Assembly (NCBI RefSeq): GCF_003334385.1
Contig: NZ_QOWN01000132.1
DNA length: 1,045 bases
From: Escherichia coli
GTDB taxonomy: Bacteria; Pseudomonadota; Gammaproteobacteria; Enterobacterales; Enterobacteriaceae
Reading direction: 5' to 3' (one strand)
The position numbers were made by a program, and so were the translations under genes. The notes beneath the pieces were generated by a model that saw only the letters and a list, made by a program, of their open reading frames with translations, had not been told where the DNA came from and ran no database searches. Within the stretch, counting starts at the first letter, position 1; every line of letters begins with the position of its first letter. Shown here in pieces: positions 496 to 1,045 of the stretch.

Positions 496-1045
496 TCACC
501 CCCTGAATCCTTCCGGGATCTGGCTGTAGTCCACGTTGTCGTAACTGGCTTTGAAGTACGGGTCCTCGCGTCTGGCTGCAGATACCGCAGGAACTTCCCA
601 GGATTCTTCGAAATGACGATCCGGACCAAAGAACGTCGACGCCTGCTTCACGAACTGGGTACCGGTATTTCCAGAGACACGCACCCAGGCGGCATAGCGT
701 TTCACACCGTCGAGCATGGTTTCGGGTGTCACACCTTCCCTGATACGGGCTTTCCAGGCTTTGAAGGCTGCTGACTTGGAATTGCCACCAGCACGTTTGG
801 GATACTCCTGCCAGGCCTGTTCAAATTCCGGTGAATATTCCTGTCGGGCAGAACGCGCTGGCGCAGACGCGTCAGCGGATGCATCAATAGTGTTTTTAGT
901 CTCCGTTGTAATCTCTGTAGTAATCTCTGTATTTGTATCAACATTCGGCGTACCCCCTGTTCCGTTATGACGTCGGGGGGTGTTCCGTTTTAACGTAATA
1001 GCTGTATCGCTGATTGCATTATTGCTGTTACTTTCTGGCGAAACA
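496..1045 (-). CDS. Phage replication/primosomal protein with DnaT-like C-terminal domain; 5'-partial, start lies beyond the window end
   Basis: The minus-strand frame with codons at 1044..1042 down to 498..496 has no stop until TGA at 498..496. The track's 78-aa ORF (GTG at 732..730) is only the tail of this open frame, reported short because no ATG/GTG/TTG occurs in-frame upstream within the window. Translation: ...VSPESNSNNAISDTAITLKRNTPRRHNGTGGTPNVDTNTEITTEITTETKNTIDASADASAPARSARQEYSPEFEQAWQEYPKRAGGNSKSAAFKAWKARIREGVTPETMLDGVKRYAAWVRVSGNTGTQFVKQASTFFGPDRHFEESWEVPAVSAARREDPYFKASYDNVDYSQIPEGFRG*. The C-terminal tail SQIPEGFRG and the W..YP / aromatic-rich block resemble the C-terminal domain of primosomal protein DnaT (recalled as ending ...SQIPPGFRG), a domain also found in lambdoid prophage replication proteins. 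From memory, not searched. Confidence 0.72.
   Translation of the reverse strand, partial: VSPESNSNNAISDTAITLKRNTPRRHNGTGGTPNVDTNTEITTEITTETKNTIDASADASAPARSARQEYSPEFEQAWQEYPKRAGGNSKSAAFKAWKARIREGVTPETMLDGVKRYAAWVRVSGNTGTQFVKQASTFFGPDRHFEESWEVPAVSAARREDPYFKASYDNVDYSQIPEGFRG
499..504 (-). promoter_or_regulatory. Shine-Dalgarno-like element (AGGGGG) for the small ORF, embedded in the last codons of the replication gene
   Basis: Minus-strand sequence TTCAGGGGGTGATCATG places AGGGGG 5 nt upstream of the ATG at 493..491. Confidence 0.35.
862..885. repeat. Imperfect 12-bp tandem repeat carrying two 8-bp palindromes, GACGCGTC (866..873) and GATGCATC (878..885)
   Basis: Read directly. The two palindromes share the pattern GAYGCRTC and start 12 bp apart. 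They encode the DASA-DASA peptide repeat. Confidence 0.8.
907..931. repeat. Perfect 12-bp tandem direct repeat gtaatctctgta x2 (908..919, 920..931) with a degenerate flanking copy
   Basis: Read directly from the sequence. Encodes the TEIT-TEIT-TE(T) peptide repeat in the linker of the replication protein. Confidence 0.85.
958..995. repeat. Two 15-bp direct repeats, tgttccgttatgacg (958..972) and tgttccgttttaacg (981..995), 13/15 identical, starts 23 bp apart
   Basis: Read directly. The first copy is preceded by ccccc (953..957), the second by gggggg (975..980). An AT-richer stretch follows at about 990..1030. Confidence 0.8.

Follow-up and report, generated by a model that had tools for sequence, protein, structure and literature searches.

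A 1,045-nt stretch of Escherichia coli DNA, called here 'the window', belongs to a lambdoid prophage of the e14/CPS-53/SfV kind and lies within its early-right region, where it carries the greater part of the gene for the prophage's replication initiator. We propose, at a probability of roughly 70%, that the core of the prophage's origin of replication, acting in cis, lies at positions ~898–996 of the window, inside the part of its own initiator gene that encodes the linker. The initiator, a protein of 327 amino acids (aa), has a winged-helix N-terminal domain (N-domain), a linker and an interchangeable C-terminal domain (C-domain); the repeats in question map to aa ~160–195, between the DNA-binding N-domain and the C-domain. 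Two repeat systems compose the putative core: partly palindromic 16-mers that start 23 bp apart, and an array of 12-mers. That the array is an unwinding element, or a site recognized in single-stranded form, seems to us about an even bet, and we hold it less firmly than the origin itself.

An earlier reading of the letters of the window ('the original prediction') had suggested an origin like that of phage lambda, though of a different type, in the segment that encodes the linker. This suggestion is supported by three results described below: the DNA is kept while the peptide drifts, the iterons recur with a period of 22/23 bp, and the same cassette occurs in non-coding DNA on the Bacillus plasmid pBSG3. 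Its account of the repeats needs correcting in that the iteron-like sites are the 16-mers, that the 12-bp tandem is a separate and much more widely conserved element and the low-stability candidate for unwinding, and that the two 8-bp palindromes are due to chance. The features concerned are as follows, in window coordinates; the minus strand carries every gene of the window.

995–1007, minus strand: ATACAGCTATTAC, an 11/13 match to the 12-mer unit ATACAGAGATTAC, abutting the upstream side of iteron 1
981–996, minus strand: iteron 1, ACGTTAAAACGGAACA on the coding strand, 64 nt upstream of the start (ATACAGAG) of the 12-mer element
958–973, minus strand: iteron 2, ACGTCATAACGGAACA on the coding strand, 23 bp from iteron 1
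936–951, minus strand: degenerate copy in a third iteron slot, ACGCCGAATGTTGATA, 7/16 identical to iteron 1
898–939, minus strand: conserved 12-mer repeat element, GATACAAATACAGAGATTACTACAGAGATTACAACGGAGACT, a candidate DNA-unwinding or single-strand recognition element
878–885: 8-bp palindrome GATGCATC, encoding part of DAS-A-DAS
866–873: 8-bp palindrome GACGCGTC, encoding part of DAS-A-DAS
844–883: GC-rich block directly after the element, among the most stable (z −2.8)

Repeat systems and chance

Three repeat systems had been claimed for this region, and all are present where they were placed: a perfect 12-bp tandem (908–919 = 920–931), extended by Tandem Repeats Finder to 900–931 (2.7 copies); a pair of direct repeats, which can be lengthened to 16-mers (958–973 and 981–996, 14/16 identical, starts 23 bp apart); and the two 8-bp palindromes. 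The minus strand encodes the linker peptide NGTGGTPNVDTNTEITTEITTETKNTIDASADASAPA here. The tandem and the 16-mer pair are non-random: of 1000 shuffles that preserved the dinucleotides of the window, one gave a perfect tandem of a 10–15-bp unit, and three gave a 16-mer pair with at most 2 mismatches, 17–40 bp apart. Two 8-bp palindromes 8–15 bp apart arose in 104, which puts that pair at chance level. Neither are the palindromes conserved; GATGCATC is replaced by GGCGCATC in 4 of 6 E. coli alleles, and is not conserved in the homologous loci L005 and L050 either. The palindromes therefore exist as described but do not amount to a meaningful repeat system, and we rejected them as functional sites.

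Conservation of the 12-mer element as DNA

The consensus of the array is ACAAATACAGAGATTACTACAGAGATTAC, which can also be written gACa(a/t)ATACAGAGAtTACTACAGAGAtTAC. It occurs in ~30 of 44 homologous loci, on the coding strand and 65–285 nt past the N-domain, in Enterobacterales, Acinetobacter, Competibacteraceae, Bacilli, Clostridia and an Acidobacteria metagenome-assembled genome (MAG). Codons were compared in 21 non-redundant loci, with the N-domains of the same genes as the control. Where the residue is the same, the codon is identical in 86% of cases in the element vs 37% in the N-domain, and the majority base at third codon positions has a frequency of 0.90 vs 0.46. Positions of the element that do vary alter the amino acid (GAG/AAG, ATT/AAT/ACT/AGT). 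Synonymous sites are thus kept while the variation is amino-acid-changing, the reverse of protein-level selection. In two loci (L012 and L023) part of the element lies in another frame, where it is read as VYRDY and HIQRIH. As judged from these alignments, the 12-mer is conserved at the nucleotide level across distant phyla in a way that protein coding cannot explain. Both comparisons proposed in the original prediction point the same way: constraint on synonymous sites exceeds what the protein needs, and the search for homologs that keep the peptide and lose the DNA repeats turned up the opposite, DNA that is kept while the peptide drifts.

The locus studied here matches the consensus gACaaATACAGAGAtTACTACAGAGAtTAC on the coding strand with 0 mismatches to its 20-mer core. 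It also has the layout by which we define the cassette class, namely 22/23-bp iterons followed by a (TACAGAGATTAC)n array, the last iteron slot beginning ~18–22 nt ahead of the element's first base; its own iterons are at −64/−41. The exact 20-mer is present in at least 120 IMG/VR contigs. In the 80 loci that were retrieved it lies without exception within a long open reading frame (ORF; median 330 aa, ~55% along), and always in the same frame. By BLAST these 80 loci fall into 5 N-domain clusters and 14 C-domain clusters.

Among annotated phages, the element is found in replication-initiator genes of phages of Bacillus (BtCS33, phiCM3 and PM1), Staphylococcus (phiMR11 orf16), Acinetobacter, Klebsiella, Pseudomonas (AF), Xanthomonas and Burkholderia, and of several Shiga toxin (Stx) phages, as confirmed with the profile; a match in a Synechococcus phage lies in a gene annotated as hypothetical. 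It is found, too, on plasmids or phage-plasmids of Bacillus, Staphylococcus, Clostridium, Nostoc, Marinobacter and Vagococcus. Element-bearing initiators match overlapping 'O-like' and 'DnaD-like' PHROG families, some of which are also matched by lambda O. The element is not universal in the family, since the N-domain homologs in Rickettsiales MAGs (L039, L042, L044, L046 and L047), which have long and different C-terminal regions, are without it.

Low-complexity sequence of this kind could in principle be nothing other than a linker generated by replication slippage, devoid of any function in cis. The peptide is indeed of low complexity, and the number of 12-mers varies between E. coli alleles: PU-1 (L003, 2139–3134) and similar alleles have one extra unit, TEIT ×3 vs ×2 (alignment columns 180–191), as if from slippage. 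Slippage would not explain conservation of nucleotides in genes whose synonymous sites are saturated elsewhere, nor occurrences that are independent of frame (L012, L023 and pBSG3), and in-frame duplication cannot yield a 23-bp period. We regard this explanation as scarcely credible.

SfV orf39 (L002), which has the same C-domain, is without the 12-mer element. Its linker (coding positions ~300–430) has GGTGCAG..TTCACC-type palindromes followed by GAACCAGTCA ×3, suggesting that another kind of origin cassette occupies this position.

The notion of an intragenic origin is familiar. In the searchable literature, which leaves most subscription journals outside, we found no relevant paper on the DNA or peptide motif and no occurrences of longer DNA or peptide strings of the element; nor did the cross-phylum conservation of the 12-mer, or this type of origin, appear in that mostly non-subscription literature.

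Iterons with 23-bp spacing

Iteron 1 is translated as TLKRNT and iteron 2 as RRHNGT. Because the 23-bp offset places them in different frames, they are not the product of a peptide duplication, and we interpret them as iterons at the level of DNA. They are the sole occurrences of the exact motif ACGTYAWAACGG in the 13-kb locus. Iteron 1 (TTACGTT-AA-AACGGAA) has dyad symmetry at 6 of 7 positions, and iteron 2 is less symmetric. Distant homologs have, at the same place, two to seven repeats each, lineage-specific and mostly palindromic: TTACGTTGAAACGTAA in Xenorhabdus (4 copies), TCACGTTTAAACGGGA in a Lachnospiraceae MAG (6 copies), TCACCTGTAGGTGA in Competibacteraceae (4 copies) and TACAAAATTTTGTA in Coprococcus.

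Iterons were also counted in 72 IMG/VR loci, in the 165 bp upstream of the 12-mer element, with N- and C-domain coding stretches as controls. The best 12-mer there has 2.4 copies on average, vs 1.15 and 1.29 in the controls, and 92 of the 102 spacings between successive copies are either 23 bp (83) or 22 bp (9), periods that are not multiples of 3. The repeats keep a register to the element: in roughly half of 21 distant homologs they lie near −18/−22, −41/−43 and −64/−66 from its start. Here, the −64 and −41 slots are occupied and the −18 slot (936–951) is degenerate; homologs have a well-formed iteron in this third slot, at −18 to −22. The degenerate copy is 9/16 identical to the Xenorhabdus iteron of the same position.

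Several smaller observations concern the iterons and their surroundings. The spacers between them consist of C or G runs (CACCCCCC; CAGGGGG here), as seen in window 950–980 and in L005, L006, L023 and L033, and throughout the family neighboring spacers often alternate between C and G runs and are hence complementary. Lambda iterons also have such arms (CCCTC/GAGGG). Position 953, in the spacer that separates the degenerate slot from iteron 2, is C in the window and T in E. coli NCTC9112 and in all five of the other aligned E. coli alleles; the coding strand accordingly reads GGT (Gly) vs GAT (Asp), the sole difference from NCTC9112. Finally, 12-mer-like sequence occurs on both sides of the iterons, ATACAGCTATTAC being the upstream one; no such flank was seen in the distant homologs that were inspected.

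The two repeat systems might have their roles reversed. In iteron plasmids, Rep monomers bind iterons and Rep dimers bind inverted repeats; by the same token the 12-mers here could be head-to-tail sites for initiator monomers, and the 23-bp palindromes regulatory or auxiliary sites for dimers, in what would still be an origin. Conservation of the 12-mers extends over a superfamily with a common fold and motifs in its N-domains, a single winged-helix footprint fits a 12-bp unit, and it is the palindromic repeats that vary between lineages. Set against this, specificity would be expected to change between N-domains of 35–45% identity, and the 23-bp repeats do change in this way. Low stability is typical of an unwinding element, and no DNA of the gene is less stable than the 12-mer array; two or three 12-mers are also few for a filament. 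We consider the reversed arrangement unlikely, though worth bearing in mind.

A cassette outside a gene

A natural control, in which the cassette is separated from coding, is found on pBSG3 (L178, NC_014104.1; 745–841), an 8.4-kb rolling-circle plasmid of Bacillus amyloliquefaciens. It has three perfect copies of the iteron CCTACAGGGAAA, at 745, 768 and 791 (23-bp spacing), and then ATTACAGAGATTACTACAGAGATTACTACAGAGATT, which comprises three 12-mers. The DNA is non-coding apart from a 63-aa ORF in another frame, and no winged-helix initiator gene is present on the plasmid. The cassette aligns to the intragenic region of phage PM1 rep, with 1-nt indels that break the frame, and its sequence recurs in several 8.4–8.9-kb plasmids of Bacillus velezensis and Bacillus sp. 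Since this copy is non-coding and its alignment contains frame-breaking indels, the module stays intact independently of coding. By analogy with the lactococcal Per systems, the cassette could allow the plasmid to exploit phage replication, or to interfere with it.

Duplex stability and RNA signals

Duplex stability was calculated from nearest-neighbor energies over 40 bp at a time. Positions 906–945, the 12-mer array itself, are the least stable 40 bp of the replication gene (z +2.75, top 0.1%) and rank 8th in the 13-kb locus (top 0.9%), so that the survey of unwinding propensity across the gene, which had been proposed as a check, found its minimum at the array. The AT-richer stretch of the original prediction, ~990–1030, is only mildly AT-rich (GC 0.38 in a 60-nt window; stability z +0.5 to +1.1) and is not the stability minimum. 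It is located beyond the iterons, toward the N-domain, and we rejected it as the unwinding element since it is only mildly unstable and the minimum for the gene is at 906–945.

We looked for other signals. No internal promoter or terminator was found in the region, nor any DnaA box in or near it; the one DnaA box in the 13-kb locus is at chance level. No Rfam family matched at E <= 1, RNA folding was not significant (z −0.73), and an explanation at the level of RNA was rejected on these two grounds.

These results bear on the idea that the repeats have nothing to do with an origin: that the iterons form an intragenic autoregulatory operator or roadblock, and that the 12-mer works at the mRNA level, for instance by affecting translation or the stability of the message. 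Consistent with this idea, the element never departs from the sense strand, it has one and the same frame in all 80 IMG/VR loci, and the predicted RNA leaves it unpaired. The pBSG3 cassette, which is non-coding and is unaccompanied by the gene, argues against it, as do the lack of significant RNA structure or an Rfam match, the fixed phase of the cassette relative to DNA repeats that recur at a period not divisible by 3, and a layout that is that of classical iterons beside an easily melted tract. Such a role is, in our judgement, decidedly improbable.

Comparison with known origins

In the lambda origin (ori), four iterons and an AT-rich tract lie within gene O, between the sequences for the DNA-binding N-domain and the helicase-recruiting C-domain (PMC7466680). 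As in the present locus, the repeats are partly palindromic and 20–24 bp apart, and the meltable tract adjoins them on the C-terminal side (PMC7466680). The N-domains of lambda O and of this initiator both match PHROG 678 ('O-like'). The differences are that the iteron sequences are unrelated, that two or three sites are present here vs four, that a sequence-conserved 12-mer array takes the place of an AT tract, and that no P-like gene is adjacent. The number of sites need not be disqualifying, because in lambda two iterons and the AT tract suffice for unwinding and for replication in vitro, according to what is cited of the work of Dodson (1986) and Wickner and McKenney (1987) in PMC7466680. 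The link to the lambda O family is indirect, via PHROG 678 and 391; the initiator does not match Pfam Phage_rep_O (PF04492), and among 29 N-domain homologs one reaches no better than E 0.028. By eye, 19 of 28 positions of the lambda AT tract can be set in register with the element. We rejected the tract as a diverged copy, because nhmmer, run with the element profile over the lambda ori region, found no match.

A second precedent is oriL of the Bacillus phage SPP1, which lies in gene 38, the gene of the replisome organizer G38P, and places direct repeats, to which the origin-binding protein binds, together with an AT-rich unwinding element within the initiator's own gene (PMC6316719). Its likeness to the locus described here is one of published layout, and SPP1 is not among the listed matches of the element in the phage collection. 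The anatomy—iterons at two-turn spacing, a meltable tract and a GC clamp—matches that of ori-lambda and SPP1 oriL in logic; in sequence it does not match ori-lambda.

Precedents exist, too, for reading the unwinding element in a sequence-specific manner. Lambda O binds the single strands of its AT tract (PMC7466680), and Rep proteins (RK2 TrfA and others) bind the 13-mers in the unwinding elements of iteron plasmids in single-stranded form (PMC4081077, PMC10602881). Like the 12-mers, those 13-mers are short, sequence-conserved direct repeats beside iterons; unlike them, they are intergenic, plasmid-borne and of different sequence, and binding of the 12-mers is a prediction.

Two further systems were compared. 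The RepA_N plasmid initiators of Gram-positive bacteria (e.g. RepA of a staphylococcal multiresistance plasmid, PDB 4pta), which likewise have their origin within repA, share 7% sequence identity with this initiator, which has no Pfam RepA_N match; the fold match of its N-domain to RepA (PDB 4pta) is not clearly apart from matches to generic winged-helix regulators. The rep gene (orf13) of Lactococcus phage TP901-1, whose function is experimentally supported according to its annotation, has TTTCCAGATGTGG ×2 in its linker-coding part followed by an A/T-rich stretch coding for N, T and Q, a layout like the present one with an N-domain of a different family. It was rejected as a carrier of the element, having the same layout and no significant match to the 12-mer profile.

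The initiator gene and its mosaic structure

The window is 99.9% identical to E. coli NCTC9112. The order of genes in the prophage is cI-like, cro-like, ymfL, rha, two small genes, the replication protein, a 32-aa PerC/YfdN remnant, dam, a LexA-family gene, rusA, kilA-N, DUF968 and Q. Three of these genes are represented in the window:

496–1045, minus strand: 3′ two-thirds of the replication initiator gene (full gene, 327 aa)
401–499, minus strand: PerC/YfdN-family remnant, 32 aa, between rep and dam
1–401, minus strand: 5′ part of dam

In full, the initiator gene spans 6496–7479 of locus L001, equivalent to 496–1479 in window numbering. From alignments of homologs and an AlphaFold2 model, the protein was divided as follows:

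aa 1–142: N-terminal winged-helix domain
aa ~143–205: linker
aa 206–327: C-terminal domain

The initiator matches PHROG 270 'replication initiation protein' (E 2.6e-77) and, more weakly and over aa 73–213, the 'O-like' PHROG 391 and 678 (E 2e-8 and 7e-5, respectively). Searches of Pfam and NCBIfam gave nothing significant. Among solved structures, sequence comparison yielded at most weak matches of GntR-type helix–turn–helix proteins for the N-domain, and none for the C-domain. An invariant EIVYWYRP motif falls, in the model, where helix 1 of the winged helix ends; that it may serve as a patch for binding single-stranded DNA is speculation, and it may simply be part of the core. In related phages the PerC/YfdN protein has ~163 aa, and matches come in two pieces spanning ~396 bp beyond the query, so that the gene has evidently suffered a deletion in this prophage.

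The C-domain (aa ~206–327) is ~92% identical in nucleotide sequence to that of SfV orf39, mEp460, cdtI and many Stx phages, and similarity to SfV and other phages stops at window 887–890. Some other E. coli prophages have window 858–930 alone in common, joined to different N-domains. In E. coli Ec-U4 (L004, 1–3119) and in L174–L176, the same N-domain, linker and cassette are attached to a differently tailed C-terminus, and rep is followed by a DnaC-like ATPase and then a DnaB helicase. The cassette thus appears to travel with the N-domain, while the helicase-recruiting end is swapped. The repeats, with swapped modules on either side, thus mark the joint of an initiator whose modular build resembles that of lambda O. 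Ec-U4 is without 6 bp at the junction (the codons for 'PA'), and the stable GC block at 844–883 overlaps the junction (~861–890), where the N-domain/origin module meets the interchangeable C-domain module.

This geometry raises the further question of whether the conserved stretch is simply a recombination joint, a common sequence at the domain boundary by which N-domain/origin and C-domain modules are exchanged. Mosaic breakpoints do flank it (the 887–890 limit of SfV-type similarity, and the 858–930 segment shared by other prophages), L004 combines the same N-domain and linker with another C-terminus, and N-domain clusters number 5 to the 14 of the C-domain. But phages of Bacillus, Clostridia and Enterobacteria, in which ~30 nt are constant, are unable to recombine directly, and exchange would explain neither the fixed register of the iterons nor the solo cassette of pBSG3. 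A joint maintained for its own sake is very unlikely; shuffling is more likely a by-product.

Proposed mechanism and its weak points

The anatomy of the region, the constraint on its nucleotides, the phasing of its repeats, the low stability of its duplex and its independence from coding lead us, by analogy with the origins discussed above, to infer initiator binding, unwinding and origin activity. The winged-helix N-domain of the initiator would bind the partly palindromic iterons at 981–996 and 958–973 and the decayed third site, phased at 23 bp. The resulting nucleoprotein complex would strain the adjoining 12-mer array (898–939) and open it; nowhere does the gene melt more easily, and a very stable GC block closes off the far side of the array. 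A conserved part of the initiator superfamily might then read the 12-mers sequence-specifically, in single-stranded form or in a distorted duplex; it is the strict conservation of their sequence that suggests such reading. The interchangeable C-terminal domain would recruit the helicase, host DnaB/DnaC in this prophage and the phage's DnaC-like ATPase and DnaB in its sister prophages.

Several facts weigh against this proposal. Good iterons number two here and three to seven in homologs, and the slot adjoining the element is the degenerate one. The AT-richness of the element is modest (stability z +2.2 to +2.75, GC ~0.42), far from that of the AT tract of lambda, and the failure of that tract to match the element profile deprives the element of homology to a proven unwinding element. 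We found no element-bearing phage with an experimentally mapped origin. Within E. coli, divergence among the 6 alleles is too small to inform on conservation. The constant placement of the element on the sense strand leaves some small room for a function at the RNA level. Lastly, this prophage shows decay, in that its PerC/yfdN gene is cut to 32 aa and no helicase or loader gene adjoins rep, and its origin may be inactive. The alternatives considered in the preceding sections are less probable and fit less well than an origin core composed of iterons and an unwinding element.

A wider reading also suggests itself, and we offer it tentatively, at somewhat less than even odds for the whole. According to it, the (TACAGAGATTAC)n array would be a near-universal cis element of the origins served by O-like/DnaD-like winged-helix initiators in phages and plasmids: an undescribed, sequence-specific site for origin opening or helicase entry, nearly unchanged from Enterobacteria to Bacilli and Clostridia and present also on Nostoc plasmids and in a Synechococcus phage. 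The linker peptide 'TEITTEIT' would hide the array, and solo plasmid copies such as that of pBSG3 could exploit phage replication or interfere with it.

Implications

In place of the 'AT-rich tract' of lambda, these loci have a defined 12-mer, held at the nucleotide level across at least three phyla and in association with more than one N-domain family. They also illustrate clearly how, in nature, a protein code and a DNA code can overlap. If the array is truly an origin-opening site, it would supply a simple signature by which to locate the origins of many temperate phages and prophages, some Stx-converting phages included. It would also indicate that a sequence-specific step in the melting of origins, or in the loading of helicase, is shared, and would explain a recurrent 'low-complexity' peptide as the by-product of a DNA signal.

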